Source of the DNA: Acutalibacteraceae bacterium
GTDB taxonomy: Bacteria; Bacillota; Clostridia; Oscillospirales; Acutalibacteraceae
Length of the DNA: 64,000 nucleotides
Assembly (NCBI GenBank): GCA_045654405.1
Contig: JAZONH010000044.1
Location: 56,817 to 120,816, forward strand
Direction: 5' to 3'
Position numbers and translations under genes: made by a program. The notes beneath the pieces are model-generated. The model did not search any database. It saw only the letters and a list, made by a program, of their open reading frames with translations, and was not told the origin of the DNA. Below are positions 1,231 to 52,157 of this stretch, in pieces; position 1 is the first letter of the stretch; every line of letters starts with the position of its first letter.

Positions 1231-1241
1231 TAATTGACACT

Positions 1242-1282
1242 AAAAACCACTTCTGAGAAGAAGTGGTTTTTCTTATTTTTTA
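1242..1282 (+). terminator. Rho-independent terminator after the symporter gene
   Basis: AAAAACCACTTCT-GAGA-AGAAGTGGTTTTT perfect stem followed by a T-run (tcttatttttt). Confidence 0.85.
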
Positions 1283-1360
1283 TTGTTTTCTCTTGTTTTA
1301 AAGCACCCTTTCTGCTATACTTTATAATGTATATTTATATTAATTTTCGGAAGTGCGAAT

Positions 1361-2362: not shown

Positions 2363-2363
2363 T

Positions 2364-2903: not shown

Positions 2904-2911
2904 GGATATTT

Positions 2912-4780
2912 ATGAATTATTTTGCAGGAAATTATGACGTTGCGGTAATCGGTGCAGGTCACGCAGGCATCGAGGCCGCTTTAGCAAGTGCAAGGCTCGG
3001 TGCATCAACGGTTGTTTTCACCGTAAACCTTGACTGGATAGGCAATATGGCTTGTAACCCCTCCATAGGCGGCACGTCTAAGGGACATCTTGTACGTGAA
3101 ATAGATGCCCTTGGCGGTGAAATGGGTAAGGCGGCGGACAAAACCCTTATTCAGAGCCGAATTTTAAATCTTGGCAAGGGCCCTGCGGTGCATTCGTTAC
3201 GCGCACAAATTGACCGTAGAGAATACACGCAATATATGAAGCATTGTCTTGAAATGCAGGACAATCTTGATATGAAGCAGGCAGAAATCATATCACTTAA
3301 AAAGAATGATGACGGCTTGTGGGAATTCACCACTATGCTTGAAGCCACCTACACCGCAAAATGCGTTGTTATTGCCACGGGCACCTTCCTTAAGGGCAAG
3401 GTCTTTGTGGGTGACGTTTCATACGAAAGCGGTCCCGACGGTATGTTCCCCTCAAACAAGCTTTCAGATTCACTTAACGAGCTCTCAGTTCCCTTAAGAA
3501 GATTCAAAACAGGTACCCCTCCCCGTGTTAACAAGCGTAGCGTTGATTATACGGGACTTGAGGAGCAGATAGGCGACGAGGAAATTACACCCTTTTCATT
3601 CGAAACCCCCGAGGGTGCTCTTGAAAATAAGGCCATATGCCACATTACATACACCAACGCAGACACCAAGCAGGTTATTCTTGATAACCTTCACCGTTCC
3701 CCCCTTTATTCACACAAAATTGAGGGTGTGGGACCCCGTTATTGCCCCAGTATTGAGGATAAAATCGTCCGCTTTGCCGAAAAGGGCAGGCACCAGGTTT
3801 TCATTGAGCCCTGCGGTCTTGATACGGAGGAGCTTTATTTACAGGGGCTTTCATCATCACTGCCCGAGGACGTGCAGCTTAAAATACTTAAGAGCATAAA
3901 GGGTCTTGAAAACGTTAAGGTTATGCGTAACGCATACGCCATTGAATACGATTGTGTTGACCCCCTTGCATTAAAATCCACCCTTGAATTTACAAATCTT
4001 GAGGGACTTTACGGTGCGGGTCAGTTTAACGGCTCGTCAGGCTACGAGGAGGCAGCAGCACAGGGTCTTATTGCGGGTATTAATGCCGCGCGTAAAACAC
4101 AGGGCAAGGAGCCATTTACCCTTGACCGAAGCACGTCATATATCGGTACACTTATCGACGACCTTGTAACAAAGGGCTGCCGTGACCCGTACAGAATGAT
4201 GACCTCACGAAGCGAATACAGGCTTATCCTCAGAGAGGATAATGCGGATTTACGTCTTACTGAAATGGGCTATGAGTTAGGGCTTATTTCGCAGGAGCGC
4301 TACGACAGGCTTCAGGAGAAAAAACGACTTATTGAAGAGGAAACCGAAAGAGTTTCAAAAATTACCATCCCCCCCTCAGAAGAGCTTTCAAGAGTTTTAG
4401 AGGAGGCAGGCACTGCACCCACCATAACCGGCTGCAGACTTTCGGAGCTTATAAAGAGACCCCAGCTTTCATACAAGCTTCTGACACCCTTTGACAAGCA
4501 CCGCCCCGATTTACCCCGCGAGGTATTCGAGCAGGTTGAAATCAACCTTAAGTATGCGGGCTACATAAAGCGTCAGCTTGCACAGGTTGAGGAATTAAAA
4601 AGGCTTGAGGTTAAAAAAATACCTGCGGACATTGATTATGACAAGCTCACCAATCTTCGTCTTGAGGCTATTGAAAAGCTTAAAAAGACCCGCCCCGAAA
4701 CCATCGGGCAGGCATCAAGAATCAGCGGTGTTTCCCCTGCGGATATAGCGGTGCTTCTTATTCACTTGAAATCAAACTAA
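2912..4780 (+). CDS. mnmG: tRNA uridine-5-carboxymethylaminomethyl modification enzyme MnmG (GidA)
   Basis: 622 aa. N-terminal FAD dinucleotide fold YDVAVIGAGHAGIEAA. Conserved GQFNGSSGYEEAAAQG and the C-terminal GQASRISGVSPADI signature. Confidence 0.95.
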   Translation: MNYFAGNYDVAVIGAGHAGIEAALASARLGASTVVFTVNLDWIGNMACNPSIGGTSKGHLVREIDALGGEMGKAADKTLIQSRILNLGKGPAVHSLRAQIDRREYTQYMKHCLEMQDNLDMKQAEIISLKKNDDGLWEFTTMLEATYTAKCVVIATGTFLKGKVFVGDVSYESGPDGMFPSNKLSDSLNELSVPLRRFKTGTPPRVNKRSVDYTGLEEQIGDEEITPFSFETPEGALENKAICHITYTNADTKQVILDNLHRSPLYSHKIEGVGPRYCPSIEDKIVRFAEKGRHQVFIEPCGLDTEELYLQGLSSSLPEDVQLKILKSIKGLENVKVMRNAYAIEYDCVDPLALKSTLEFTNLEGLYGAGQFNGSSGYEEAAAQGLIAGINAARKTQGKEPFTLDRSTSYIGTLIDDLVTKGCRDPYRMMTSRSEYRLILREDNADLRLTEMGYELGLISQERYDRLQEKKRLIEEETERVSKITIPPSEELSRVLEEAGTAPTITGCRLSELIKRPQLSYKLLTPFDKHRPDLPREVFEQVEINLKYAGYIKRQLAQVEELKRLEVKKIPADIDYDKLTNLRLEAIEKLKKTRPETIGQASRISGVSPADIAVLLIHLKSN

Positions 4781-4793
4781 AGGAGAGAATATT

Positions 4794-6518
4794 ATGATAC
4801 CAAGAAACGAACATCCCAACCCGGGATTTTATCGCGACAGCTACATTAACCTTAACGGTGAATGGGATTTTGACTTTGACTTCGGCAACTCAGGCGAAGA
4901 ACAGAAATTCCATTTAAACGAGCATAAGCTCAGCAAAAAAATCACTGTTCCCTTCTGCGTTGAAAGTGAATTATCAGGCATCGGCTACAAGGATTTTATT
5001 CCTGCAGTATGGTACAAAAAAACCGTTAATATAACCGAAGAACAGCTTTCGGGTAAGGCATTCATCGTTTTCGGCGCAGTTGATTTCCACGCAAGAGTTT
5101 TTGTTAACGGCGCCTTTGCAGGCGAGCACTTCGGCGGCTACACATCCTTCAGAATTGATGCAACAAAGCACCTTGTTGCAGGCGACAATATTATTGCGGT
5201 TTACGTGCAGGATGACACACGCTCACCCTTACAGGCACGCGGCAAACAGAGTGAGCTTGTATATTCACACGACTGCGACTACACAAGAACAACCGGTATC
5301 TGGCAGACAGTTTACATGGAATTCTGCCCTGTGAACTACATTAAAAGCTTTAAAGTTTTCCCCAATATTGATACTGCAACCATTACAATTACCGCAGAAA
5401 TCGAAGGCAATGGTGAATTTTCTGCTGTCGCTTATTGGGACAAAAAAGAAGTTGGTTCAATTACAACTCCTACCACCGGTCAAACAGTAACAGTAACCCT
5501 TCCTCTTACAGAAAAACACCTTTGGGAGGTTGGTAAGGGCGGTATTTACAGCCTTAAGCTTAACTTCGGTGGCGATGAGGTTACAAGCTACTTCGGTCTT
5601 CGCGAAGTAAAGCTTACTCCCGACAAGGGCATCACCATCAACGGCGAAGCTGTTTTCCAAAGACTTGTGCTTGACCAGGGCTTCTATCCCGACGGTATCT
5701 ACACCGCACCCACCAAGGAAGCTCTTAAGAACGATATCCTTCTTTCAATGAAGGTGGGCTTCAACGGTGCAAGACTTCATCAGAAAATTTTTGAACCTCT
5801 TTTCTTACACTATTGCGATGAATTAGGTTATCTCGTATGGGGTGAACACGGCAACTGGGGTGCTGACCATTCCAACTTCGAATCACTCCGTTACTTCTTA
5901 CTTGAAATTGAAGAAGAAATTGAAAGAGATTTCAATCATCCCTCTTTAATCGGTTGGTGTCCCTACAACGAAACATGGGACGTAAACGGAAGAAAGCAGG
6001 ACGACGACGTTATTAAAATCGTTTATCGTACCGTAAAAAACCTTGACAAAACACGTCCCTGCATCGACACAAGCGGTAACTATCACGTAGAAACTGATAT
6101 TTATGATATCCACAACTACGACCAGGATTACAACAAATTTAAAGCTGATTACGATAAACTCATAAATGAAAATGTTCTTTTCGACCACCAGGGACATCGT
6201 CAGAATTGGAACGGTGAACCCGTATTTATGAGTGAATACGGCGGCATCAGAGTTGAGCTGAGAAACGCTGAGGAAAATGACCGTGAAAAAGCATGGGGCT
6301 ACGGCAACGCCGCAACGTCACTTGAGGAATTCTACGAAAGATACGATGGTCTTACCACCACACTTATCGACAACCCCAAGATGATCGGCTTCTGCTACAC
6401 CCAGCTTACCGACGTTGAACAGGAGCTTAACGGTGTTTACCGTTACGACAGAAGCGAAAAATTCGATTCTGAAATCCTTTACAAAATCAACACAAAGAAA
6501 GCCGCTATTGAGGAATAA
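4794..6518 (+). CDS. Glycoside hydrolase family 2 protein (beta-galactosidase/glucuronidase-like)
   Basis: 574 aa. Acid/base region NHPSLIGWCPYNET and nucleophile region FMSEYGG match the GH2 pattern (NHPS..W...NE / .EYG). N-terminal sugar-binding-like beta domain. Confidence 0.7.
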   Translation: MIPRNEHPNPGFYRDSYINLNGEWDFDFDFGNSGEEQKFHLNEHKLSKKITVPFCVESELSGIGYKDFIPAVWYKKTVNITEEQLSGKAFIVFGAVDFHARVFVNGAFAGEHFGGYTSFRIDATKHLVAGDNIIAVYVQDDTRSPLQARGKQSELVYSHDCDYTRTTGIWQTVYMEFCPVNYIKSFKVFPNIDTATITITAEIEGNGEFSAVAYWDKKEVGSITTPTTGQTVTVTLPLTEKHLWEVGKGGIYSLKLNFGGDEVTSYFGLREVKLTPDKGITINGEAVFQRLVLDQGFYPDGIYTAPTKEALKNDILLSMKVGFNGARLHQKIFEPLFLHYCDELGYLVWGEHGNWGADHSNFESLRYFLLEIEEEIERDFNHPSLIGWCPYNETWDVNGRKQDDDVIKIVYRTVKNLDKTRPCIDTSGNYHVETDIYDIHNYDQDYNKFKADYDKLINENVLFDHQGHRQNWNGEPVFMSEYGGIRVELRNAEENDREKAWGYGNAATSLEEFYERYDGLTTTLIDNPKMIGFCYTQLTDVEQELNGVYRYDRSEKFDSEILYKINTKKAAIEE

Positions 6519-26137: not shown

Positions 26138-27667
26138 TTGTACAAAAAGTGTCCGAAATGCGGAGCAGAAATCCCCAAGGAATCGGCTTTCTGTTTGAAA
26201 TGTTTTTCCTCTGTTGAGGTTATTGAGCCTCTTACCGAAAAGGAAAACCACACCGCATTTTTTATGATTTGGTCTAAATTTTTAAATATCTTTAAATCAC
26301 GTCGTTTCAGAGCAAGCCTGATCGGATTAGTGGTGTTTTTTATACTTATGGGTAGCTGTATTCTGCTCATAAAAAACGCTAAAACACCGCCACCCATTAT
26401 TCCCGAAACAAGCATATTACATTTAACTGAAACCGTTGCAGTAACACAGAGCAACGGAGAGTTTGTAACTGCAGAAAACGGCGAACAGGTTTTCAACGTT
26501 GTTGACGTTACACAAGCAATAACCATTGCGCCCACTTCAACTACCGAAAAGCAAGGCTTTCTTGCCAATATATTCAACGACAAAACCACCCAAGGCAACT
26601 CAACCGTAACACTTGAAGAAACAACTGAAAAAAAGGGCTTTTGGGAAAATCTTTTTGGTAGCGCCGAAACCACCGAAGCAGGATATCAATCCACTATTAC
26701 CGAAACCACCCCTATAACTACTATACCGGAAACCACAAAGCCCACAACTACTCTCCCCCCTACAACAACTTCGGCTCAAATATCGGCAAAGGACTTTGAG
26801 TACACTATCTCAGGAAATTTTGCTACTATCACCAAATACACCGGCCAGTCTTCAACGGTTATTATTCCTGCAGTAATAGAGGGCTGTGCGGTTACACGAA
26901 TAAAGCAAAACACCTTCCAAAATAATAACTCTATTGTAACCGTTTCCTTTGAAACCAACTCCAAACAACCCTATTTATGGGTAGAACAGCAGACCTTTAA
27001 CAATTGCCCGAATCTTAGATTCATAAATTTTTCAGAAACCGATCTTGGTATCATTAACAACTTTGCCACTGATTGCTTAAGCGTTGAAAACATAAGCGTT
27101 ACAGGCTATCAATTCAAATGCATTGACGGCACGTTGTACTACAATACCGGTTCCACTTGGAAGGTGCGTTACCATTGCCCGGCAAGTCCCACCACAGAAA
27201 TAAAGCTCCCAAATAACTGTGCCGGTTTTGAATCTGCAACTAATCTTAAAGAGGCTAAAAATGTTAAAAACATTTATTTCGGCAAAAATGCGGTTTCCTT
27301 CCCTGCCTCCAACCAGTTACCGCCTAATTGCGAAAACCTTTTTGTCGATTCGGAAAATTCTGCGGCATATGATATAGGTGGTGTAGTTTTTTTGAAAAAC
27401 GGCAGTCAATATAATTGTATTTATCCTCCACAAAACAAAAGCCACTCACTTACCTTACCCGAAAACACATTGATTTACTTCCAACAGATAAAAAACCCTT
27501 ATCTGAAAACCCTTTACATACCATCAACAACAAACGCACAATATCTTGACAATGTTCTGTCACTAAAAACCTTTTCATCTCTTGAAAATCTTTATTTCGG
27601 CTCAGGGCATTCTAAAGCCGAGTACGTTTTAGTTCACAGTGACGTTCCTAACACACAATTATATTAA
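26138..27667 (+). CDS. Zinc-ribbon / TM / Thr-rich linker / BspA-type leucine-rich-repeat surface protein
   Basis: TTG start 7 nt after AAGGTGG. CPKCG..x..CLKC. TM LIGLVVFFILMGSCILLI. TTxPxTT linker. LRR units such as VIIPAVIEGCAVTRIKQNTFQNN.SIVTVSF. Confidence 0.65.
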   Translation: MYKKCPKCGAEIPKESAFCLKCFSSVEVIEPLTEKENHTAFFMIWSKFLNIFKSRRFRASLIGLVVFFILMGSCILLIKNAKTPPPIIPETSILHLTETVAVTQSNGEFVTAENGEQVFNVVDVTQAITIAPTSTTEKQGFLANIFNDKTTQGNSTVTLEETTEKKGFWENLFGSAETTEAGYQSTITETTPITTIPETTKPTTTLPPTTTSAQISAKDFEYTISGNFATITKYTGQSSTVIIPAVIEGCAVTRIKQNTFQNNNSIVTVSFETNSKQPYLWVEQQTFNNCPNLRFINFSETDLGIINNFATDCLSVENISVTGYQFKCIDGTLYYNTGSTWKVRYHCPASPTTEIKLPNNCAGFESATNLKEAKNVKNIYFGKNAVSFPASNQLPPNCENLFVDSENSAAYDIGGVVFLKNGSQYNCIYPPQNKSHSLTLPENTLIYFQQIKNPYLKTLYIPSTTNAQYLDNVLSLKTFSSLENLYFGSGHSKAEYVLVHSDVPNTQLY

Positions 27668-27681
27668 ACACGGAGAAACTT

Positions 27682-28116
27682 ATGGCTTTAAAACGAACCG
27701 ACGATTTGATTGAACAATTAAAATCCCAGGAAATTTCTTATGAAGAGTATCTCTCAGACAATGAGGATGCTTTTGAGGTAAATGACATTTCACTTTTCTG
27801 GAAAAAAATCATCAAAAAAAGTAAAATGTCTAAAATTGACATCATAAATAATGCTGATATAGGGTACACGTATTTTTATAATATTATCGGTGGCAAAAGT
27901 GTGCCCGCAAGAGATACAATTATAAAAATATTTTTAAGCATGCCCGTTGGCTTAGAACTTTGCCAGGAAGCACTCAAGATGTATAATTGGGCTTCCCTTT
28001 ATCCTAAAAATAAGCGAGACAGCATTCTTATTTATGCTTTGACCCACAATTTATCCTTATATGAAACCGAAGATATGCTTACGTCACAAGGTGAAAAGGG
28101 ATTCAAATCAATATGA
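27682..28116 (+). CDS. Putative helix-turn-helix protein
   Basis: 144 aa. MSKIDIINNADIGYTYFYNIIGGKSVPARDTIIKI looks like an XRE-type HTH. Its stop overlaps the next start (ATGA, 28113-28116). Confidence 0.5.
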   Translation: MALKRTDDLIEQLKSQEISYEEYLSDNEDAFEVNDISLFWKKIIKKSKMSKIDIINNADIGYTYFYNIIGGKSVPARDTIIKIFLSMPVGLELCQEALKMYNWASLYPKNKRDSILIYALTHNLSLYETEDMLTSQGEKGFKSI

Positions 28117-28850
28117 GCCGATACGAAGAATTCATAAAATCTACCTTGGCGGATGATTACACGCATATTGAATGTGCTAAAGACTGTGATGCTACAAAAA
28201 TTGATATATATACACACAAGGCTTCTCAAAATAAGTTGGTTTGCATATATTCTACAAACCGCAACGACCATATTTTCAGAATATTGAAGGGCATACGTAC
28301 CCCGCACCTTCCCGTTATATACGACATATGCTCATGTGAAAAAAATCTTCTGGTGTTGGAAAGCTATGTGGAAGGTAAAACTCTTGCAGAAATACTTAAA
28401 ACCAATCCACCCACACCACGAAAAGCAGTTGCGTACACTTTACAAATCTGTGAAGCTTTAAAATTTTTGCATTCAAAGCAAATCATGCATAGGGATATAA
28501 AGCCTGAAAATATAATAATTACACCTGATGACACGGCTATTCTTATTGACTTGTCAGCCGCTCGCCTTCTTACAGAAAAAGACCCCGAGCAAGCTGATAC
28601 TGTTAACCTTGGCACAGTCGGATACGCCGCACCCGAGCAATATGGCATACGCCAATCCACACCACCTACCGATATATATGCCGTGGGTGTGCTCCTTAAC
28701 GAGCTTACTGCCAGATGCCATCCCACTATAAAAACTCCCCCGGGAAGGTTGGGCAAAATTATAAAAAAATGTACGGAAACACAAATTTATAACAGATATC
28801 AGACTGTTGAAAAACTTGTTTCAGATCTGAAAAAAATCAGACGATTTTAA
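28113..28850 (+). CDS. Short Hanks-type kinase-fold protein with a degenerate N-lobe (possible pseudokinase)
   Basis: 245 aa. Catalytic loop HRDIKPENIII, DLS in place of DFG, GTVGYAAPEQ. No glycine-rich loop and no obvious VAIK lysine (KLVCIYS). Confidence 0.65.
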   Translation: MSRYEEFIKSTLADDYTHIECAKDCDATKIDIYTHKASQNKLVCIYSTNRNDHIFRILKGIRTPHLPVIYDICSCEKNLLVLESYVEGKTLAEILKTNPPTPRKAVAYTLQICEALKFLHSKQIMHRDIKPENIIITPDDTAILIDLSAARLLTEKDPEQADTVNLGTVGYAAPEQYGIRQSTPPTDIYAVGVLLNELTARCHPTIKTPPGRLGKIIKKCTETQIYNRYQTVEKLVSDLKKIRRF

Positions 28851-35832: not shown

Positions 35833-36891
35833 TCATATAAGTAAAAATGTTGTTTTCTGTACGCCCTTTTGACTTGAAAAATCATCCGGCTTCATTTTTG
35901 AATATTCTGAAAAATGCTCAATATATTCATTGACCGCAAATTTAATAGTAACATCTGATGAAACCAGAGCGTTTGCGCTCTTTCTGTCAAAGTCATTACA
36001 AACAAACATATACTTTTCTGCATTCAGGCCGTTTATGTTGGAAGCAAGTATATTCGTTGCATAAACTGAACCCATATCCTGCTTGGTAACAATAATTACC
36101 CTGTCCGCTACATTAAGCAACGTTGCCTTAAAATCATCAAAAGCGACATCTGCATCCACAACGATGTAATCATACTCTTTTGATTTTTTAGCCGCGGTTG
36201 CAAGCTCAGAAAACACCATGTAGCTTATACCCAAAGACATCAATGATGCTTTGAACGGCGGTATATAGCTGAAAAGCTCTTTTCTTACTACGTGCTTTAT
36301 TTCAGAGAACACAAGTGATGAATGATTAGTAAATCTTGCGTACACGTCCAGCGCCGTTATAGGTGTTTTGTTGTCGAGCAAATGTTGAAAATGCTGCAAG
36401 CGGTCTGCGTTGATATACAAAACCTTTTTATAGTTTTTTGTAAGACAAGCACTGATGCCCAAAGCAACGGTTGTTTTACCTGTACCGCCGCAAGCAGAGG
36501 TCACAAGTATAATCTGCGGTTCCTTTTTTTCACCGCTCTTAACCCTTAAAGAGCCCTGACTTTTACCAATAATTTCAGTAAAAATCTCTTTTATGCTTGT
36601 ATATTTATATATATGGCTTACGTTAAGTTGAGCGGTAGATTCCTCAGTGTATTGCTCAGTCATAATAAAAATCTGACCAATATCGTGCCTCAACACACTG
36701 TCATCAAACAAATCCTCAGAAACAATAAGAATTTCTGCCTTTTTTGGCTCAGAAAAATATTGATTAAAATAACCTTCCTCGGTTATAACTTCAATATCTA
36801 CCTTTTCAAAAAACTCTTCTACAAACTTATATTGTATGGGAACTATATAATCCCTGTCGTAATCAGCAATTATAATTTTGGGTTTTGCCAT
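35833..36891 (-). CDS. TadZ/CpaE-like protein: an N-terminal receiver-like domain plus a ParA/MinD-type P-loop ATPase domain
   Basis: 352 aa. The N-terminal alternating beta/alpha pattern KIIIADYDRDY...AEILIVSEDLF is receiver-like with degenerate acidic residues. P-loop ILVTSACGGTGKTTVALG, with Cys where the deviant-Walker-A signature Lys sits. DYIVVDAD looks like Walker B. Confidence 0.6.
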   Translation of the reverse strand: MAKPKIIIADYDRDYIVPIQYKFVEEFFEKVDIEVITEEGYFNQYFSEPKKAEILIVSEDLFDDSVLRHDIGQIFIMTEQYTEESTAQLNVSHIYKYTSIKEIFTEIIGKSQGSLRVKSGEKKEPQIILVTSACGGTGKTTVALGISACLTKNYKKVLYINADRLQHFQHLLDNKTPITALDVYARFTNHSSLVFSEIKHVVRKELFSYIPPFKASLMSLGISYMVFSELATAAKKSKEYDYIVVDADVAFDDFKATLLNVADRVIIVTKQDMGSVYATNILASNINGLNAEKYMFVCNDFDRKSANALVSSDVTIKFAVNEYIEHFSEYSKMKPDDFSSQKGVQKTTFLLI

Positions 36892-36914: not shown

Positions 36915-37847
36915 TTATTCTATAACAAATTGGAAATCGCTGTTTGCCAAGCGAACAATATCGCCGTTCTTAATATAATACGGCTTATTAGGCTCTAGCT
37001 TTGCGTTGTTAATATACGTACCATTAGCGCTTTTAAGGTCGGTAATTGTGTATTTGCTCCTATATTTTTCTATACGGCAATGGGTTTTGCTTATCATACC
37101 GTTAAAGGTTACAACACCATCTGCCGCGCCCGAGCTTCTGCCAATAAGGAAGCTATCTTTATTAATAACAAATTCCGTCGGTGTGGGTGAATTCATCGCA
37201 ACAAGCCTTGCTGTACGATCCAGAATGGATTTACGTATCGGGCTTTCAGGTCTTCTGTACGTGCTGGTTGCAGAGCCGCCCGTTTTACCGATGCCGTTAT
37301 AAACATCCTCCAACGTTTTCGTGCCGTCGGATAAATCCGACTGAAGTCTTAAAAGCTCAGGCGTAGCAAAGCTGTGGAAAGCGGAAATTGTTTTTATTAA
37401 CGTAGTTCTTAATTCACTTTCAAAGGAAGCGTAATCAGTAAACATACCCTTCTCTACGGGAACATAAACAAGATTAACCTTGTAGGTGTTTGCATCAACA
37501 AAAATATGCTCAAATGATATATCGATATTTTCACAGCTCAAAAAGCCGTTATTCTTTACTGACAGAATTGAAGCAAATAAATTCGAAACCACAGTAATAA
37601 AATTATCGGGCGAAATGCCTGACATCATACTGAGAAGCGGCTTGTTTGAATTAACGATATAGAACAACTGTATTTTGCCGTTATATTTCATCTTCATACA
37701 CCTTAAAAGGCTGTTGCTGCCCTGGCTTTGCAGCACCTTATATTCGGTTGTCAAAAACAGACTGTTGTCATTTAATATGTATGAAAAATTAGATCCACAC
37801 GCTAATTCTTCAAGCAATCCTTTTTGAACTAATGAATTCATAAACAT
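36915..37847 (-). CDS. FHA-domain protein with a conserved N-terminal domain (DUF6382-like), paralog of 48083-49822
   Basis: 310 aa. The C-terminal FHA has canonical GR / SKTH / SANGTYIN residues. The ATG at 37841 (MNSLVQ..) is better spaced from AGGGG than the one at 37847. Confidence 0.75.
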   Translation of the reverse strand: MFMNSLVQKGLLEELACGSNFSYILNDNSLFLTTEYKVLQSQGSNSLLRCMKMKYNGKIQLFYIVNSNKPLLSMMSGISPDNFITVVSNLFASILSVKNNGFLSCENIDISFEHIFVDANTYKVNLVYVPVEKGMFTDYASFESELRTTLIKTISAFHSFATPELLRLQSDLSDGTKTLEDVYNGIGKTGGSATSTYRRPESPIRKSILDRTARLVAMNSPTPTEFVINKDSFLIGRSSGAADGVVTFNGMISKTHCRIEKYRSKYTITDLKSANGTYINNAKLEPNKPYYIKNGDIVRLANSDFQFVIE

Positions 37848-44300: not shown

Positions 44301-44762
44301 TTATTTTTTTCTTTTTATTTCATTATAAATGTTTCCGTTTAATACGCCATGAAGACCCAAAGAAACAATCATTAAAAATAACAAAACGTAAATCACATAA
44401 GTATTATTATACTTTGTGAACATAAGCGCAATAAATGATATTACACTTGCCAAAAACACACCGTCGGCAATTGAGGCATACATATTTTTAAAAAACCTCA
44501 ACACACCGGGTATTTTTCTCTTAGGGATCTCATCCCCATGCTCCTGCTCGTGCCATTTTTTGTATTTCCATATCATTAACACAAAAAACACCAAGCTGAA
44601 TAAAAATCCTGCCCAAAAAACCGAGCCCACTATAATTACGGATATGTTGCTCTGAGCCTGCACCGAAAAAGGCATTGCCAGAAACGATGCACCTAAAAGC
44701 ACTGTAAAAAACAGGTACAAGCTCATTAACCGCCTGATTGTGGATTTTTTAATCCGCTTCAT
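44301..44762 (-). CDS. Small 4-TM membrane protein, unknown function
   Basis: 153 aa with four hydrophobic segments. Its start overlaps the upstream stop by 4 nt. Confidence 0.65.
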   Translation of the reverse strand: MKRIKKSTIRRLMSLYLFFTVLLGASFLAMPFSVQAQSNISVIIVGSVFWAGFLFSLVFFVLMIWKYKKWHEQEHGDEIPKRKIPGVLRFFKNMYASIADGVFLASVISFIALMFTKYNNTYVIYVLLFLMIVSLGLHGVLNGNIYNEIKRKK

Positions 44763-45547
44763 TCAATCACCTCGGCAGTATGAATCAGCATAACGTCATC
44801 AAGCGCCGACATTTCCTTCATAGGCACGAAGCTGGGCTTTTCTGTTGATTCATCGGTGAGAAGTGCGGTTTCATTAAGCGCCGCAGTCTCATCCCACGAA
44901 TCGTTATTATCCTGTACGTATAATGGTGCTGTCTCATCAAGAGGTGCGGTTTCGTCGCTCGACATAGCAGGCCTTGACTGCACGGGAACGTTGAGAGGTG
45001 CAGTTTCATTCAAGGGTGCGGTTTCGTCGCTACCGGCAAAATCCCTTGCGCTTACAGGAACGTTAAGAGGAGCCGTCTCGTTAAGGGGTGCAGTTTCCTC
45101 ACTACCTGTAAAGTCCCTTGAAAATACGGGAACGTTAAGGGGTGCAGTTTCATTGAGGGGTGCGGTTTCCTCCGACCCTATGCCTGCGCTGCGATTGTCC
45201 GCCGCAACGGGCATTGCAACCGGCTGAGGTGCTCTTTTGGCTGCTTTCTTTGCCTCTTTAGGCTCCTTTACAGCCTGCTTAGGTGCAGGTTTAGCTACAC
45301 TCTGCTCCATTGTTGCCGTAAGCTTACCGCGATTCTGGTTAACCTGGCTTGACTTATGTTCCTTTTTACCCGACTTTTCATTAAATTCACGCATCTGAGC
45401 AATGGATTTACGAGCAGTTTTACCGGATAAATCACCTATTACACTAGGGATTTTGAATTTTATAAATAGTATTACTGCTAAAAGGAGTGCAATCCCCGCA
45501 AAAACGAAGGAGATAATTGAAATTATTGATAGTACTTCTGCTGCCAT
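44759..45547 (-). CDS. N-terminally membrane-anchored protein with a tandem ETAPL-repeat tail
   Basis: 262 aa. TM VLSIISIISFVFAGIALLLAVILFI followed by KFK, which suggests a cytoplasmic C-terminus. A Lys/Pro-rich linker. Ten ETA(P/A/L)L motifs. Confidence 0.7.
   Translation of the reverse strand: MAAEVLSIISIISFVFAGIALLLAVILFIKFKIPSVIGDLSGKTARKSIAQMREFNEKSGKKEHKSSQVNQNRGKLTATMEQSVAKPAPKQAVKEPKEAKKAAKRAPQPVAMPVAADNRSAGIGSEETAPLNETAPLNVPVFSRDFTGSEETAPLNETAPLNVPVSARDFAGSDETAPLNETAPLNVPVQSRPAMSSDETAPLDETAPLYVQDNNDSWDETAALNETALLTDESTEKPSFVPMKEMSALDDVMLIHTAEVIE
44852..45175 (-). repeat. 72-nt (24-aa) in-frame tandem repeat, about 4.5 copies
   Basis: SEETAPLNETAPLNVPVFSRDFTG / SEETAPLNETAPLNVPVSARDFAG / SDETAPLNETAPLNVPVQSRPAMS / SDETAPLDETAPLYVQDNNDSW / DETAALNETALLTDE. 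Confidence 0.85.
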
Positions 45548-45550
45548 AAT

Positions 45551-47284
45551 TTATTTCTCCTCCTTGAATTTATATTCGTTTTCTATCTTAACTTTATAGT
45601 TTTGGTGTTCACTGATGATTTTTTGTTTCATCTCTTTAGTGTACTTGTTGGAACCGCCATCCTTAACATCATTAGCCATTTCGTATACCCTGTCTAATAA
45701 GTCTATGAGTGTTCCTTTTTCAACATCAACACCGCTAAATTTTTCCTTGCAACTATTAAGCAGGCAAAATACTGCATAATAATAGCTAACTCTTTCGTAG
45801 TTACCTATTGTTGTATCATCTTCTATAGAATCAAGAGCTTTGTTTATGCCAACAAATAGCTTTTCACACTCATCCGTTGTAAGGTCGTACTTTGTATCCT
45901 CCGGTATGTAATGCTTCTGGAATTCACAAATTTCATACAAACTGTTTTCGTAGTATGACGGGGTATAGTTTTCGATTCCTTTGTTACGGTCAAGATATAT
46001 TATAGCTTTGTTGCATCGCTCTATAACACCATCATTTAACTGACCATCTTCATTTATGGAAACATAATCGAAATAACAAAGTATTGCCATTCGGAAATTG
46101 ATATCTGCGTAAACATCAGGCTTAGCTTTTTGAAGTTCAGCGCTATGGTTTTTCATTATATTACCATCTTCGTCTTTATTTCCGCCGTGGTAAATTCCTT
46201 CAAATTTAGCAAGGTCAACAGAGGTAAAGCCTTTTCCTTCGGAAACCTTGTCTTCATAATATTCTACTAATTTGAGATAAGCCTCTTCACGCTCAGGATA
46301 TAAAATAACCGCCTTTTGATACAAATCCAAATCCCCTGTACGATTAACATAAGCATCGTAGTTGTTTTCGTTGATTGCCTTTGCAGCCAATGCAGTACCA
46401 AGACCCGAAAAAGCCATAATTACGCTGAGTACGAACGGCACAACCGTAGCTATAACCTTACGCTTCTGCTTCTTCTTGTATCCTGATGTAATAAGGTCGG
46501 GATGCTCAAGGTCATAAATAAGGTCTGCGCAGCTCTGATATCTGTTTTCCTCGGCGGGCTGCACGCACTTGTCAATAATAAGCTCAATACCTTCTGAAAG
46601 GTTGGGGTTAATCTGTCTTACGGGGATATAACCATCACCCATTCTGGGGTCAACACCTGTAAGAAGGTTGTGCATTGTCATACCCAATGAGTAAATATCC
46701 GACCTGGGTGTTGTCTGGCCGTTGTATGCCTCGGGAGGAGCGAAGCCACGTGTACCAAGAACCTTTGTATCTGAAAGATTCTGCTCCTTATACTCACGTG
46801 CAATACCGAAGTCGATAATCTTAATGTTACCCTCGGGCTTAAGCATAATGTTAGCCGGCTTCATATCGCGGTAAACGATGGGACGGGGCTTCTGTGAATG
46901 GAGGTAGCTGAGCGCGTCACAAACCTGCTTAGCCCAGTCAATAACCTTTTCTTCGTCCTGAACGCCGAACTCTTTTAAGATTTTATCTAAAGATTCGCCT
47001 TCGATATAGTCCATAACAACGTAGATTGTAATACCGTTGTCAATGATATCAACTATACGGGGCAATGCGGGGTGGTCAAGGCGCTTCATAAGGTTGGCCT
47101 CAGCAAGCAAGCTGTTTACAACAATTTCATCGTTAGCGCCTGTTCCCTTTTTTCTGATTTCCTTAACAGCCCACTGCTTGTTAAGACGACGGTCCATCGC
47201 AAGGTAAACCGTGGACATACCGCCGCGTCCTATTTCTTTAAGTACTTCGTACTTACCATCAATTATTGTTCCTATCTCTGTCAT
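45551..47284 (-). CDS. Transmembrane Hanks-type Ser/Thr protein kinase
   Basis: 577 aa. GRGGMSTVY, WAVKEI, YRDMKPANIML, DFGIAREY, GTRGFAPPEAY. One TM (VIATVVPFVLSVIMAFSGLGTALAA). A ~270-aa helical extracytoplasmic domain. Confidence 0.85.
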   Translation of the reverse strand: MTEIGTIIDGKYEVLKEIGRGGMSTVYLAMDRRLNKQWAVKEIRKKGTGANDEIVVNSLLAEANLMKRLDHPALPRIVDIIDNGITIYVVMDYIEGESLDKILKEFGVQDEEKVIDWAKQVCDALSYLHSQKPRPIVYRDMKPANIMLKPEGNIKIIDFGIAREYKEQNLSDTKVLGTRGFAPPEAYNGQTTPRSDIYSLGMTMHNLLTGVDPRMGDGYIPVRQINPNLSEGIELIIDKCVQPAEENRYQSCADLIYDLEHPDLITSGYKKKQKRKVIATVVPFVLSVIMAFSGLGTALAAKAINENNYDAYVNRTGDLDLYQKAVILYPEREEAYLKLVEYYEDKVSEGKGFTSVDLAKFEGIYHGGNKDEDGNIMKNHSAELQKAKPDVYADINFRMAILCYFDYVSINEDGQLNDGVIERCNKAIIYLDRNKGIENYTPSYYENSLYEICEFQKHYIPEDTKYDLTTDECEKLFVGINKALDSIEDDTTIGNYERVSYYYAVFCLLNSCKEKFSGVDVEKGTLIDLLDRVYEMANDVKDGGSNKYTKEMKQKIISEHQNYKVKIENEYKFKEEK

Positions 47285-47296
47285 TTACCCCTCACC

Positions 47297-48067
47297 TCAC
47301 GACATTGTTTTAACAAGTAAAACTGAAATATTATCACGCTCACCACGTGATTTCACCAACTCAATAACGTGCTTTGCGTTGCTATGCATAGCCTGCTTAT
47401 GAGGAAGGACGCTTGCATCAAAATATTGTGCCAGCTCCTGGGGTGAAACCTGATGCCTGAATCCATCAGAGCAAAGCAGGTACACACCATTCTGTGTTTC
47501 GCCCACAATAACCTCAGGTTCAACGTCTCTTGAAGCACCAACGCATTGAAGAAGAAGATTTCGGCGACTGTCAACCCTTGCTTGCTCGGGAGTCATATTG
47601 CCGCGCCTTACTTCTCTTTCTACAAAGCTCTGGTCAATTGTCAGTTGCTTGAGACCCTTGTTTACGTAATATGCACGGGTGTCACCTACGTGAACGATAA
47701 GGTATTTACCCTCTACAAAAAGCATACCGGTAAAGGTTGTGCCCATATTCACGCCGATGCTTGCACCAAATTGTGAAATCTTAACGTTAAGCTGCTTGAG
47801 CATATGAGTCCACTTACCGCCGATAACCTCTAAATTGAGGTTACCTAATTCGTAGGGAAGCTCTTCTTCAAACCATCTTGAAAATTCTCTGATAACGGTA
47901 GCGCTTGCAAGCTCACCCTTCGCAAGTCCGCCCATACCGTCACAAACAACGGCAAGCATAACCTGCTTGTTATCCTTGTCATAAACAGCCTGCTTAACCA
48001 AAAGGCTGTCCTGATTAGTTTTTTTAACGATACCAACGTCGGTATCTGCAGTTGCTATATAATGCAT
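47297..48067 (-). CDS. PP2C-family (PPM) Ser/Thr phosphatase
   Basis: 256 aa. TDVGIVKKTNQDS, VVCDGMGG, VGDTRAY, LCSDGF, DNISVLLV. Confidence 0.85.
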   Translation of the reverse strand: MHYIATADTDVGIVKKTNQDSLLVKQAVYDKDNKQVMLAVVCDGMGGLAKGELASATVIREFSRWFEEELPYELGNLNLEVIGGKWTHMLKQLNVKISQFGASIGVNMGTTFTGMLFVEGKYLIVHVGDTRAYYVNKGLKQLTIDQSFVEREVRRGNMTPEQARVDSRRNLLLQCVGASRDVEPEVIVGETQNGVYLLCSDGFRHQVSPQELAQYFDASVLPHKQAMHSNAKHVIELVKSRGERDNISVLLVKTMS

Positions 48068-48082
48068 TTTTTAACCCCCTGT

Positions 48083-49822
48083 TTATACTTTAAACAAAAA
48101 GTCTTCATTAGCCAGTGTAATAGTGTCACCATCAAATATTTCTATTTCACAGTTGGGCATTACCATTCTGCCGTTAATGTAAGTCTTGTTTTTGGAATTC
48201 AGGTCTGTAATAAAATATCTGTTATCTCTGATAACAATATCCGCGTGGCTTCGGCTGATAACGTTACTGTTGCTTACGAAATAATCAACGTAACTACGCT
48301 CCTTGCCGATTCTGAAAACGGGCTTTGATATTTTAACAACCTCACCATTGAAAATACGCTTAAGAGTGGGATATTTAATATACTCTTTTGCCGGTGCAGG
48401 ACCATTACTATATGTATCCATTGGTGCAAAGGGCTCATCTGTAAGAAGATCTGTTTTGTCCTCTTCAAAAGCACCCGACATTACTGCAGGCTGGGGAGCC
48501 GGAGCAGGCTGCACGGGCTGGGGTGCGGGCCTTGCCGCAGGCTGGGGCGCCGGAGCAGGTTGCACGGGTTGGGGTGCGGGCCTTGCCGCAGGCTGGGGAG
48601 CCGGAGCAGGTTGTTTTATCTGATTAATCTCGCTTGAGTGAAGCTCATAAGCGGGCTTCATAGCAGGAGCATTGCCTGTAGGCTGTGCAACAGGGCGTGC
48701 GGGCTGGGGAACCGGAGCGGGTTGCACGGGCTGAGGTACCGGAGCAGGTTTTACTACAGGTGCCACCGGTGCTGCAACAGGCTGCGGTGCAGGAATGGGT
48801 TTAGCTACAGGAGCTTCGACGGGCTGAGGTGCAGGAACGGGCTGAGGCGCCGCTACAGGCTTAGCCACAGGAGCCGCAGGCTCATCTTCGATTAATAATC
48901 CTGTATTATCTTCCTCATCAACAATAGGAAGAACGGGCTGAGCCACAGGAGCAACGGGTGCTGCAACAGGCTGCGGCGCAGGAATGGGTTTAGCTACAGG
49001 AGCTTCGACGGGCTGAGGTGCAGGAATGGGCTGAGGCGCCGGTACAGGCTTAGCAACAGGTGCTTCAACAGGCTGGGGTGCCGGTGCAGGCACAGCCACA
49101 GGGACCTCGGGCTCATCCTCGACCAATAAAGCTGTGTTTTCTTCCTCGGCGAAAAGATCATCATCCATCATATCAGCGATATTTATTTCAGGCACGTTAT
49201 TGATATTAACCTCTTTAATAACGGGCTCCGGAGTAGGCTGTACAACTTTCTTGGGAGGATGACTCTTGTTAACAGCGTCAACCACCTTTGCATCCTCTGC
49301 TAAAATATATTGTTCAACAAGCTTATAATCATACTCTGCCATTGACTTAAGGAATGCACCGAATCGCTGGGCATATTCCATATCTGCCTCACGGAAGGGC
49401 TTAGCCATTGCTGAGATTGCTGATAAAAAGTTTATTAAATTATTTGCATTAGCTTTTGCCGTAGCAGGAACGTATGCCAATTGTAAATCCCAGGTTGTTT
49501 CATTTATGAAAATATATCTGAAATCCAACAACAGTTTATCGGGAGATAAGTTCAGTGACTTAATGTCGCGTACAATAGCCGCCGCCTGCTGCATAAGAAG
49601 CAAAAACTGAACCTTAGACATGGGCTCTCTGAGTCTCTCGCCTAAGGGAGTGCCATTCATACAAACAAACTGTACACCACTGCTCTGAACAGATGAACCA
49701 AGAATACCCTTTATGGGAGTCTGGGATACATACTTTGCTTCACCATTGATAAAGCCATCTGTTGGAGCAAACTCTAAAGAAAGAATCGTTGAATTTCCAT
49801 TTTTAGATATGTTAAATTGCAT
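48083..49822 (-). CDS. FHA-domain protein: DUF6382-like N-domain, a long Pro-rich repeat region, and a C-terminal FHA
   Basis: 579 aa. First gene after the consensus promoter. The FHA has GK (not GR), SRSH and SKNKTYING. Three acidic E(E/D).T.LL..DEP motifs. Confidence 0.75.
   Translation of the reverse strand: MQFNISKNGNSTILSLEFAPTDGFINGEAKYVSQTPIKGILGSSVQSSGVQFVCMNGTPLGERLREPMSKVQFLLLMQQAAAIVRDIKSLNLSPDKLLLDFRYIFINETTWDLQLAYVPATAKANANNLINFLSAISAMAKPFREADMEYAQRFGAFLKSMAEYDYKLVEQYILAEDAKVVDAVNKSHPPKKVVQPTPEPVIKEVNINNVPEINIADMMDDDLFAEEENTALLVEDEPEVPVAVPAPAPQPVEAPVAKPVPAPQPIPAPQPVEAPVAKPIPAPQPVAAPVAPVAQPVLPIVDEEDNTGLLIEDEPAAPVAKPVAAPQPVPAPQPVEAPVAKPIPAPQPVAAPVAPVVKPAPVPQPVQPAPVPQPARPVAQPTGNAPAMKPAYELHSSEINQIKQPAPAPQPAARPAPQPVQPAPAPQPAARPAPQPVQPAPAPQPAVMSGAFEEDKTDLLTDEPFAPMDTYSNGPAPAKEYIKYPTLKRIFNGEVVKISKPVFRIGKERSYVDYFVSNSNVISRSHADIVIRDNRYFITDLNSKNKTYINGRMVMPNCEIEIFDGDTITLANEDFLFKV
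48490..49145 (-). repeat. In-frame Pro-rich coding repeats
   Basis: A 51-nt unit in ~2.4 copies (48490-48612). A 189-nt unit in 2 copies (48768-48956 and 48957-49145) whose first ~104 nt differ at only a few positions. Confidence 0.8.
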
Positions 49823-50048: not shown

Positions 50049-52157
50049 TTATACAGTTTTTTTAAGATCTTCTGCCAAATCACTGCAACTGCCGTATCGT
50101 GCAGATGGGCTTATGGCAACACATTTATCGATTATTTCTTCAAGCTCTATCGACAACAACGGATTAATCTGTCGTATAGGTCTGTATTCATATTTTTTAG
50201 TGTTAGGCCCAACACCAGTCACTAAATGGTGCAAGGTCATACCCAGTGCATACACGTCGGTTCGTGCATCTGATTGTCGTCTGCCGAACTGCTCGGGAGC
50301 CGCGTAGCCCTTTGTTCCGAAGCAAGCGGTGTCGCTTTTTTTCTGCGCATCGTAACAACGCATAATGCCAAAATCTATAAGGGTTAAGCGCCCGTCATCC
50401 CTGCACATAATATTCGCAGGCTTAAGATCCCTGAATATTCTTGGGGGATTAAGTGTGTGCAGATAACCTAACACTTCACATAGCTGCATACCCCAATCAA
50501 CAACACGTTCCGGATCCTGAGCAGAATCCCTGTTAACAATTGCCTCCAGGGTTTCGCCCGTAATATATTCCTCAATAATGCACAAAAACTCGTCCGTTTC
50601 AACTATTTCATATATTTTGGGTATCATTGGATGGTCCAGTTCTTTTACTGCCGCAGTTTCCTTGAACACCATATCCCTAACAATTTTTGTGTATTTTTTA
50701 TCCTGCTTAAAGCACATTTTAGCAGCATAAAGTGCACCATCGGAAACATCCTCAACAAGGTATACTCTGAACGTTCCGCCCTTGCCCAACATACGCAAAA
50801 CTCTATAGCTGTTATCAAGCATAGAGCCTACAATATTTTTTTCGTTCAACAGCTTTTTCTTTTCGGGCTTGTGAGGAATTTGCTCTTCCTTATAGAAAAC
50901 AAATTTCTCGACGTGAGCAAAATCGATAACGTCGTTAATGCATAATTTGTGCATCTCACCCTTTTCGATTTTCTTGGAATTTATCCAAACGCCGTTAGTA
51001 GATGAATCCTTTATGAACCACGTATAATCGTCATAGTAAAACGTTGCGTGATTTCTTGAAATTTTAGGGCTGCTGATAACAATATCGTTATCCTCTGTTC
51101 GCCCTACTATAATTCTGCCTTTTTTAATAGCGGTAGTTGATCTGTTTTCCGACCACAAAACAAGGGTATCTGAGAAAAGCCTTTCTGTATGATGCTCCTC
51201 GGGCGGTACCTCAAACACACCCACTCGTGCTTCCTTTTTAAATCTGCCGCATTTATGGCAGCACAGTTGATTTTCCGTAGGTGTTTTACCAACAACCGAA
51301 AATTCATGGGCGTTATTTTTGCAATCCAGATATTTGTTGCCTCTTTCATCGGCAATTTCTCTAACCGCAAGAACCGCCATACTTTTCATTCCCGATACAT
51401 TCGGGTTTACTCCATCAAAGGTATCTATATGGATTTTAAATTTACTGAAATCAATTAATTTGCAATCATTTTTAACCGCAACTTCCCGTATTGCTCTGTT
51501 GAATTTTTCGATATCCTTATCTTTAAACTGCTTGAAAAAATCAAACTCAGGGTTTTGGGACATACAGGTAGTAAACAACGTAGCACACCATACCGCTGCA
51601 CTAGGATAACGTGCCTTGATATTATTCAGCATAATATCGTACGCAAAGGTAAATGACGTCTCATCCTCAACGTACCCGTACATATTTTTACCTATTTCCT
51701 CGTTGAAATAATTTTCAACACAACCGGTAACGGCAACGTCGCCAAGCCAGTCGCCGGCTCCCATTAAAACCATAATTACATCGGGTTCGATTGCGCCGGA
51801 ATGCAAATTGTACGTCCGCTCCTTGGAGCATCCGGATGGGAATAATTCTGCAAGGTCGGGCATTTTGGTAACGCGACTGTAGGCATAGGAATTATTAACT
51901 AATAATTCGCCACCGAAATAGTTTATAACCCTCTGCCACCAGGTACGGTTTTTATCTGAAATACCTGCTTTTACACAGTTTTCACCCTGATAAAATATTT
52001 GATATCCCGGGGGATTGAAGCCTGCAAAGGTGCTTACGGAGTCACCTAACACAGAAAATCTTTTACCGTAATATTTATTTGCTTTTCGCCAATCGGCAAA
52101 CTGCACGTTGCCTATACCGGCTAATCTTTCACTGGTTTTATCGTTATACACAGCCAC
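50049..52157 (-). CDS. Three-part fusion: SGNH/GDSL-like domain (probably inactive), FHA domain, and Hanks-type Ser/Thr kinase
   Basis: 702 aa with a GTG start 8 nt after AAAGGAGG. GDS block FSVLGDSVS. The block V position reads DGVNPN, not DGVHPN. FHA with VGR / SRNH / STNGVWIN. Kinase motifs GKGGTFRVY, YAAKMC, FRDLKPANIM, DFGIMR, GYAAPEQF. No signal peptide or TM. Confidence 0.75.
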   Translation of the reverse strand: MAVYNDKTSERLAGIGNVQFADWRKANKYYGKRFSVLGDSVSTFAGFNPPGYQIFYQGENCVKAGISDKNRTWWQRVINYFGGELLVNNSYAYSRVTKMPDLAELFPSGCSKERTYNLHSGAIEPDVIMVLMGAGDWLGDVAVTGCVENYFNEEIGKNMYGYVEDETSFTFAYDIMLNNIKARYPSAAVWCATLFTTCMSQNPEFDFFKQFKDKDIEKFNRAIREVAVKNDCKLIDFSKFKIHIDTFDGVNPNVSGMKSMAVLAVREIADERGNKYLDCKNNAHEFSVVGKTPTENQLCCHKCGRFKKEARVGVFEVPPEEHHTERLFSDTLVLWSENRSTTAIKKGRIIVGRTEDNDIVISSPKISRNHATFYYDDYTWFIKDSSTNGVWINSKKIEKGEMHKLCINDVIDFAHVEKFVFYKEEQIPHKPEKKKLLNEKNIVGSMLDNSYRVLRMLGKGGTFRVYLVEDVSDGALYAAKMCFKQDKKYTKIVRDMVFKETAAVKELDHPMIPKIYEIVETDEFLCIIEEYITGETLEAIVNRDSAQDPERVVDWGMQLCEVLGYLHTLNPPRIFRDLKPANIMCRDDGRLTLIDFGIMRCYDAQKKSDTACFGTKGYAAPEQFGRRQSDARTDVYALGMTLHHLVTGVGPNTKKYEYRPIRQINPLLSIELEEIIDKCVAISPSARYGSCSDLAEDLKKTV

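Follow-up and report, generated by a model that had tools for sequence, protein, structure and literature searches.

The catalogue of type VII secretion systems (T7SS) with kinase, PP2C phosphatase and FHA genes dates only from 2024, and control of these systems by phosphorylation has been a conjecture (PMC11217815); the question raised by the locus described here is where such phosphorylation might be written and read. The locus lies in a 64,000-nucleotide (nt) stretch of DNA from an Acutalibacteraceae bacterium (assembly GCA_045654405.1, contig JAZONH010000044.1, positions 56,817 to 120,816 of the forward strand), called the window throughout. The gene in question, here H, encodes a 262-amino-acid (aa) protein with one transmembrane (TM) helix and ten acidic T-x-x-L motifs, and follows directly on the gene of a TM Hanks-type Ser/Thr kinase. 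H is very probably a core T7SS component of the TseH type, and on balance it is likely, from comparative sequence evidence, to be a multivalent phosphothreonine (pThr) docking scaffold that couples the kinase and the PP2C phosphatase to T7SS assembly. Such a scaffold had been proposed in an earlier sequence-only reading of the window; the comparative predictions made there have all come out in its favour, while the surrounding T7SS locus and the prior listing of the protein as TseH/TsdH had been overlooked.

The H protein and its threonine motif

The open reading frame (ORF) of H begins with a hydrophobic N-terminus, AEVLSIISIISFVFAGIALLLAVILFI, followed by KFK and a basic stretch; the positions of its linker, motif array and C-terminal module are given in Table 1. 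The repeat unit has the form GS[ED]ETAPLNETAPLNVPV plus a variable 6-mer, with units beginning at aa 124, 148, 172 and 196; Tandem Repeats Finder reports a 72-nt period of 3.4 copies with 76-78% matches at 44925-45172, which equals the four 24-aa units. Eight of the ten T-x-x-L motifs are ETAPL, one is ETAAL and one is ETALL; after the repeats and a terminal DETAALNETALLTDE the protein continues as STEKPSFVPMKEMSALDDVMLIHTAEVIE, and the conserved C-terminal module reads ...LDDVMLIHTAEVIE. The TM helix, basic linker, 24-aa repeats and ten ETAxL motifs had all been described in the sequence-only reading and were recovered from the ORF and the repeat analysis, as was the gene spacing, with the kinase stop 3 nt upstream of the H start and a 4-nt overlap (ATGA) with the following gene for a 4-TM protein; the conserved juxtamembrane and C-terminal modules had been left unmentioned.

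AlphaFold2, run with the family alignment A1, models the TM helix at aa 2-30 with a predicted local distance difference test score (pLDDT) above 90, and two further helices at aa 43-58 and 68-78; from aa 80 to the end there is no structure in the model (pLDDT about 45-55), and the tail is predicted to be disordered. Across 300 family members the segment before the TM helix has a net charge of -0.7 with a mean K+R content of 0.09, and the 30 aa that follow the helix carry +3.9. By the positive-inside rule the tail is predicted to be cytoplasmic with the N-terminus outside, a topology also suggested by the presence of the same motif in the linker of a soluble FHA protein; the cytoplasmic tail that had been proposed from the KFK after the TM helix is thus borne out at the level of prediction.

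Pfam and NCBIfam scans of the H protein returned no family. More than 453 homologs of 157-271 aa came up in a word-indexed search, every one annotated as hypothetical and none with Pfam domains; a profile search of 1.84 billion representatives gave 2958 clusters (50% identity) at E <= 1e-3, with 1682 at E <= 1e-10, and in a scan of one genome per species at least 166 genomes matched the family profile. The hosts include Oscillospiraceae, Acutalibacteraceae, Ruminococcaceae and many Lachnospiraceae, together with Anaerovoracaceae, Bulleidia, uncultured "Bacilli" and the cultivable species Clostridium sartagoforme (locus L038), C. nigeriense (L028), C. folliculivorans (L081) and Eubacterium ramulus (L085); no Actinobacteria are among the 80 loci listed, a set to which no search aimed at actinobacterial T7SSd loci contributed.

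Three modules are shared in alignment A1. The first is the TM helix with KIPxVIGDLSGRTARKSIAxMRxxNEKSGxKxYxxSxxNxxRGKLTxTM, in which I33, I37, D39, L40, A45, I49, R53, N56, G60, R73 and T77 are invariant or near-invariant; the second, which follows a variable basic linker, is the acidic T-x-x-L array, usually with PETGLL first; the third, at the extreme C-terminus, is GGKKLxMLDxVMLIHT[DEN]EVI, with H256 invariant and T257 and E259 near-invariant. The most conserved residues of the tail are threonines: T77 is invariant, and T112, T128, T200, T227 and T257 are near-invariant. T77 (in RGKLTxTM, 45308-45330, minus strand) lies outside the array and has Met at +3; T257 (region 44759-44800, minus strand) has Val or Ile at +3, and HT..V is present in 210 of the 270 members used for the motif statistics. 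These two threonines may form a further class of site or may serve structural contacts.

The motif statistics were taken over 270 full-length unique family members, with each tail shuffled as a control. T..L occurs 1323 times in these tails against 239±13 in the shuffled ones, an excess of about 5.5-fold. Leu stands at +3 of 57% of tail Thr and of 9.5% of tail Ser, against a background Leu frequency of 10.7%; the rate for Ser equals background, and Ser does not substitute for Thr. Around Thr, Leu is enriched only at +3 (0.59) and +2 (0.33). The flanks are acidic, with E (57%) or A at -1, mostly E, D or N at -2 and -4, and E or D at +5. Between lineages the motif appears as ETGLL, ETAPL, ETTVL, ATEVL, GTELL or ETTPL, so that positions +1 and +2 drift (GL, AP, TV, EV, EL, TP) while Thr and Leu stay; the conservation of both residues had been named beforehand as a prediction of the scaffold proposal.

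Copy number ranges from 0 to 15 across the 270 members, with a median of 4, and it varies at strain level, as the proposal had likewise anticipated: three near-identical proteins (P0046, P0011 and P0017, of 252, 261 and 270 aa) carry 3, 4 and 5 copies of a 9-aa EAEET[AT]PLR unit. When the four units of the window protein are compared, the codon pairs of the motif show 35 synonymous and 7 non-synonymous differences, the spacer codons 15 synonymous and 42 non-synonymous, and the Thr and +3 Leu codons 18 synonymous and none non-synonymous. This pattern indicates that purifying selection acts on the motifs and that they are more than recent copies. Together with the family-wide statistics it rules out that the ten motifs arose by chance, low complexity or recent duplication.

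The T7SS locus, TseH and the FHA proteins

Eighty-six loci were compared, 6 of them on metagenome contigs and 80 taken from the 166 other genomes with a match; gene content was scored by tblastn with the window proteins, and absences are mostly due to contig ends. The recurring order is an FHA protein, PP2C, kinase, H, in part a 4-TM protein, a giant protein, a DUF6382-FHA protein, ParA, YukD and EssC. Of these loci, 83 have the kinase, 79 the PP2C, 77 an FHA protein and 76 the giant protein; the H gene lies directly downstream of the kinase in 83 of 86, with at most 17 nt between kinase stop and H start in about 78 of those 83. The EssC of the window scores 1136 bits against TIGR03928 (T7_EssCb_Firm), a curated NCBIfam equivalog with a cut-off of 778, and this score together with the conserved operon order identifies the locus as a T7SS. 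The sequence-only reading had recognised the kinases, the PP2C and the FHA domains, and had passed over the rest of the T7SS operon.

T7SS subtypes c to j were defined by Garrett, Higginson & Palmer 2024 (PMC11217815; also a bioRxiv preprint), a work in which DUF6382 also occurs. Their T7SSd/e components include a kinase (TsxD), a PP2C (TsxF), a DUF6382-FHA protein (TsxJ) and a giant envelope protein (TsxI); TseH/TsdH is described as having one TM helix and an unstructured cytoplasmic region, with no motif, repeat or function given, and threonine phosphorylation is conjectured to control these systems without sites being named (PMC11217815). H resembles TseH/TsdH in its single TM helix and predicted unstructured tail and in its place in an EssC-type locus with a kinase and a giant protein. 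The link was made through position, description and one locus, L087, rather than by alignment to a reference TseH sequence. L087 is a T7SSe-type locus reached with the FHA segment of the published TseJ as query; the exact published protein was not returned, and the TseJ of L087 is 73% identical to the published FHA region and carries SETTVL and GGTTVL. Directly after the kinase, L087 encodes a 239-aa family member with the N-terminus IPAIIGDLTGRTVAREIKAIR...RGMLTEKV, nine ATEVL-type motifs and the C-terminus ...VIVHSDEVIE; this is followed by a 157-aa 4-TM protein and a 2015-aa giant protein. The locus also has an EssC with a canonical FHA domain, two WXG100 genes, a PP2C, the kinase and, in the YukD position, an 89-aa product with no Pfam match. 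This clear member at the H position makes it very probable that the family is TseH, and that H of the window is a TseH-type core component.

The window shares with T7SSe counterparts of YukD (TseB), TseD, TseF, TseI and TseJ, and differs from it in four respects: the FHA domains of its EssC lack the pThr-binding residues that the T7SSe EssC has; it has a second J protein (J standing for the DUF6382-FHA proteins); it has a ParA-like ATPase resembling TsfV of T7SSf; and no counterpart of the two WXG100 proteins TseA1/A2 was found. A search of the 64-kb window by tblastn with the two WXG100 proteins of L087, and by a scan for small ORFs with W-x-G, returned no WXG100 (EsxA-like) gene, which is a weak test for small divergent proteins; the substrate genes are thus elsewhere or too divergent for these searches.

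The T-x-x-L motif is not confined to H. The upstream J of the window, a 579-aa soluble protein with neither a TM helix nor a signal peptide, has three copies in its Pro-rich linker, as the sequence-only reading had correctly noted: ENTALL (aa 228, 49124-49141), DNTGLL (aa 305, 48893-48910) and DKTDLL (aa 455, 48443-48460). Between one and eight copies of [ED]xTGLL or GETTVL lie in the upstream J linker, between DUF6382 and FHA, in most loci. In the downstream J of 40 loci, a protein of about 305-310 aa, no repeated acidic TxLL motifs were found in the linker, which shows a few isolated T..L strings (NGTLSL, DQTARL). The flavour of the motif covaries in part between H and J: ETTVL-type H proteins occur with GETTVL J proteins in L055, L065, L075 and L059-L062, and ETGLL-type H proteins pair with EATGLL J proteins. 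The kinase of the window carries a related string, SDTKVL, in its activation loop (DFGIAREYKEQNLSDTKVLGTRGFAPPE, aa 158-186), and the loop consensus DFGIAREYKEQNL[AS]DTxxLGTKGY holds in 22 of 23 loops extracted from homologous loci; the acid-flanked T-x-x-L sits there at the usual autophosphorylation position. As a side observation, the linker of the upstream J of the window (aa ~235-450) is a long Pro/Ala/Val/Gln repeat (PAPQPVEAPVAKP...) broken by the three xTxLL motifs; it far exceeds the linker of most homologs, the whole protein having 579 aa against about 355-440.

Judged from their residues, the kinase and the FHA readers look functional. The kinase has a Gly-rich loop, a VAIK-type Lys, YRDMKPANI, DFG and APE; the 310-aa downstream J and a fusion of SGNH hydrolase, FHA and kinase domains at the head of the operon keep the canonical GR, S-x-x-H and NG of pThr-binding FHA domains. 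Across 54 upstream FHA domains S-R-x-H and N show at least 90% conservation, and across 38 downstream ones H and N-G-T do so too. The FHA domains of the window align to those of RNF8 and DgcB, and the AlphaFold2 model of the 310-aa J (pLDDT 85.8) matches FHA-phosphopeptide complexes of GarA, FhaA, OdhI and DgcB in Foldseek. The two N-terminal FHA-like domains (~220 aa) of the window-type EssC have lost GR and S-x-x-H in all 26 sequences aligned, with G[ASTC]x in place of GR and KNDA or RNEA in place of S-x-x-H, while the EssC of L087 (L087:615-1335) retains GR...SGRH...NG. Where the pThr pocket is lost, the second, motif-free DUF6382-FHA protein is present beside ParA, YukD and EssC.

The DUF6382 part of the 310-aa J (aa 1-190) is modelled with a pLDDT of about 90 in the order β-β-α-β-β-long α-β-β-α-α-α, and its segment NGFLSCENIDISFEHIFVD resembles the catalytic-loop region of kinases. 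DUF6382 was considered as a possible EssB-like pseudokinase that would bind the degenerate FHA domains of EssC; sequence searches of the PDB (single domain and profile) returned only FHA matches or a spurious TAL-repeat match, and the top 50 Foldseek matches of the full-length 310-aa model all lie in the FHA half.

Proposed phosphothreonine docking and its alternatives

In the proposed mechanism, the TM kinase (TsxD), its extracellular domain presumably sensing a signal, would phosphorylate threonines of the H tail, the linker motifs of the upstream FHA protein and also itself, in the activation loop. The DUF6382-FHA proteins, whose FHA domains are pThr-competent, would bind phospho-Thr with Leu at +3, as would the FHA domain of EssC itself in T7SSe-type loci; this docking would recruit or cluster cytoplasmic parts of the machine at the membrane, and the PP2C phosphatase would reset the system. 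Docking of this kind is suggested by the acidic residues at -4 to -1 and the hydrophobic +3, which fit the consensus XααααTX(X/V)φ(P/R)I of M. tuberculosis Hanks kinases (as quoted in PMC6888350); by the restriction to Thr and the +3 Leu, which fit the selection of FHA domains for pThr and for the pT+3 residue (PMC3953482, PMC5549992); and by the fixed pairing of the kinase and H genes with a PP2C and two FHA proteins. For the window variant we infer that the downstream J would act as the adaptor between phospho-H and the ATPase, since the pThr pocket of EssC is lost and a second, motif-free J stands beside ParA, YukD and EssC.

Several points weigh against pThr docking. The model draws entirely on sequence statistics and synteny, and the conserved Thr and Leu could also serve docking that is independent of phosphorylation. 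The flavours of H and J are not always matched, as H proteins of the ETAPL type (L010, L019, L060) or the ETTPL type occur with DATGLL J proteins; the upstream FHA domains carry GKER in place of the canonical GR, the 579-aa J otherwise having SRSH and NKT; a few family members have only 0 to 2 motifs; and docking leaves the roles of the juxtamembrane and C-terminal modules unexplained.

Phosphorylation-independent docking, in which T-x-x-L would bind DUF6382, YukD, the ParA-like ATPase or EssC through its degenerate FHA-like domains, and the kinase, PP2C and FHA proteins would have other targets, is considered rather unlikely. The missing GR and S-x-x-H of the window EssC would suit it, as T7SSb EssC FHA-like domains bind their partners without phosphate (PMC11217815); the fold and ligand of DUF6382 are not matched to known ones, and a hydrophobic and acidic motif is typical of many non-phospho short linear motifs. 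Such a motif, however, would not be expected to keep so strictly to Thr over Ser (57% against 9.5%), which is what the pThr pocket of an FHA domain demands, nor to recur at the autophosphorylation position of the kinase loop, nor to come, in almost every locus, from a gene whose translation is coupled to that of the kinase. It is distinctly unlikely that the tail is a kinase substrate without FHA docking, acting either as a phospho-sink or decoy that buffers the kinase or as a charge switch in which up to 10 phosphates alter the contact of the tail with the basic juxtamembrane module, the membrane or EssC. The match to the Hanks-kinase consensus, the very acidic tail opposite a very basic juxtamembrane segment and the freely varying copy number, as expected for a sink or bulk charge, all agree with such a role, and the kinase's own preference for a hydrophobic +3 residue could account for part of the Leu conservation; but Leu exactly at +3 in all lineages, alongside two pThr-competent FHA proteins, most simply means that the sites are read.

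An extracellular tail, reached through a signal peptide or an N-in anchor, would make the repeats a wall spacer or glycosylation sites near the giant protein; the envelope neighbours (the giant surface protein and the 4-TM protein) and the Thr/Pro-containing repeats of wall-associated proteins give this some appeal, but it was rejected as very improbable because of the charge distribution, which shows no basic n-region ahead of the hydrophobic segment and a strongly positive one after it, and because a soluble FHA protein has the same array in its linker; for TseH/TsdH, too, the tail is predicted to be cytoplasmic (PMC11217815).

Returning to pThr docking, a tentative extension, about which we are doubtful, is that activation of the kinase drives head-to-tail phospho-networking of H and J into a membrane cluster or condensate that nucleates the T7SS. 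Such networking would be possible because the motif is multivalent on both partners, with mostly 3 to 15 copies on H and as many as 8 on the upstream J; if true, H and J would be a bacterial counterpart of the multivalent phospho-scaffolds LAT or nephrin, with repeat copy number tuning the threshold and PP2C dissolving the cluster.

GarA and OdhI carry an acidic ETTS Thr motif in a disordered segment of their own, which is phosphorylated by Hanks kinases and can be bound by the FHA domain in cis or in trans. The FHA protein EsrG1 of Schaalia is phosphorylated on T152 of its disordered linker within an Esx-linked sensing pathway (PMC13622651, a 2026 preprint). The upstream J is built like these three proteins, with acidic Thr motifs on a disordered part of the chain that also bears the FHA domain, and differs from GarA, which has one site and regulates metabolic enzymes, in having up to 8 sites and a membrane scaffold with the same motif. 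Read-out by assembly and activation of a secretion machine is known from the type VI secretion system of Agrobacterium, in which PpkA phosphorylates Thr14 of TssL and Fha binds it, activating secretion (PMC3953482). TssL, like H, is a membrane core component with a cytoplasmic acceptor, there at the N-terminus, served by a TM Hanks kinase (PpkA), a PP2C (PppA) and an FHA reader; the systems and proteins are unrelated, however, and TssL has a single site (DLPpTVVEI) on the N-terminal peptide of a folded protein, whereas H, a dedicated and disordered scaffold, mostly displays 3 or more motifs, and these recur on the linker of the reader. M. tuberculosis provides a further parallel in FhaA-MviN (Rv3910) and Rv1747, where FHA domains dock on pThr in the cytoplasmic region of a membrane protein under PknB-type kinases (PMC5549992); PDB entry 3oun is among the Foldseek matches of the J model. 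These cases differ from H in having single sites on multidomain proteins and no link to a secretion ATPase.

The place of the family in T7SS loci (as TseH, with no function) and FHA-pThr switches on secretion systems were already known; what is new is the conserved, copy-number-variable T-x-x-L array on a dedicated scaffold, the motif common to H, FHA adaptor and kinase loop, and the complementary loss of the pThr pocket in the EssC of the window variant. The conjecture of T7SS phosphoregulation thereby gains concrete, mutable candidate sites and a dedicated scaffold protein, and with them a testable account of how phosphorylation could activate the secretion machine. The family is widespread in Clostridia of the human and animal gut (Lachnospiraceae, Oscillospiraceae, Ruminococcaceae and Clostridium among them), communities that are probably shaped by T7SS antagonism; if the docking role is true, H would be an unusually clear bacterial scaffold of multivalent short linear motifs whose copy number varies between strains.

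Features and neighbouring genes of the window

Table 1. Positions of H, its parts and the other operon genes in the 64,000-nt window.
Feature	Positions	Strand	Basis
H gene, TseH-type T7SS component	44759..45547	(-)	ORF, 262 aa
N-terminal TM helix, aa 2-30, predicted N-out/C-in signal anchor	45458..45544	(-)	AlphaFold2 and charge
Basic juxtamembrane module, aa 31-80, conserved	45308..45457	(-)	Columns of alignment A1
Variable Lys/Ala/Pro-rich linker, aa 81-123	45179..45307	(-)	Length-variable, unaligned in A1; low-pLDDT coil
Ten acidic T-x-x-L motifs, aa 124-233: four 24-aa tandem units and terminal DETAALNETALLTDE	44849..45178	(-)	
Conserved C-terminal module, aa 234-262, ...LDDVMLIHT[DEN]EVI	44759..44848	(-)	Alignment A1
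TM Hanks-type Ser/Thr kinase, TsxD-like, proposed writer	45551..47284	(-)	Pkinase E=1e-50
PP2C phosphatase, TsxF-like, proposed eraser	47297..48067	(-)	PP2C_2 above curated cut-off
Upstream DUF6382 (weak) and FHA protein, TsxJ-like, 579 aa	48083..49822	(-)	FHA E=2e-14
SGNH hydrolase-FHA-kinase fusion, soluble, extra reader/writer	50049..52157	(-)	Pfam matches
4-TM protein, 153 aa, translationally coupled to H	44301..44762	(-)	4-nt overlap
Giant surface protein, 2106 aa	37965..44285	(-)	Sequence; TsdI/TseI description in PMC11217815
Downstream DUF6382 and FHA protein, 310 aa, proposed reader/adaptor	36915..37847	(-)	Pfam matches
ParA/MinD-like ATPase with N-terminal extension, TsfV-like	35833..36891	(-)	AAA_31 and CbiA; in 40 loci
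YukD/EsaB-like protein (TsxB), 90 aa	35543..35815	(-)	tblastn matches PF08817 YukD genes, L001 and L005
EssC-type T7SS FtsK/SpoIIIE ATPase, 1502 aa	31021..35529	(-)	TIGR03928 T7_EssCb_Firm

The 4-TM protein encoded after H has homologs in 34 of the 86 loci and in L087 (E=2e-8), and is not among the T7SSe components listed in PMC11217815; its match to the Pfam 8xMP octameric membrane family is sub-threshold (E=1e-3, 19 bits against a cut-off of 30). The fusion of SGNH/GDSL hydrolase, FHA and Ser/Thr kinase domains, which heads the operon, has an unusual three-domain layout without a TM helix; by tblastn, L008 and L009, both among the closest relatives, are the only loci with a separate copy.

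Just past the end of the operon, three genes lie on the opposite strand at 26138-28850 (+). One encodes a 509-aa protein with a zinc ribbon and one TM helix, possibly a TseK-like component, and the others a 144-aa protein and a 245-aa stand-alone kinase domain (HRDIKPENI, DLSAAR); zinc-ribbon proteins flank the T7SS locus in L005 too. In L003 and L004, which represent one Oscillospiraceae lineage, a small integrative mobilisable element (1-6142) lies directly upstream of the T7SS operon and contains two integrases, Mob_Pre, a NikA-like gene and TnpV.

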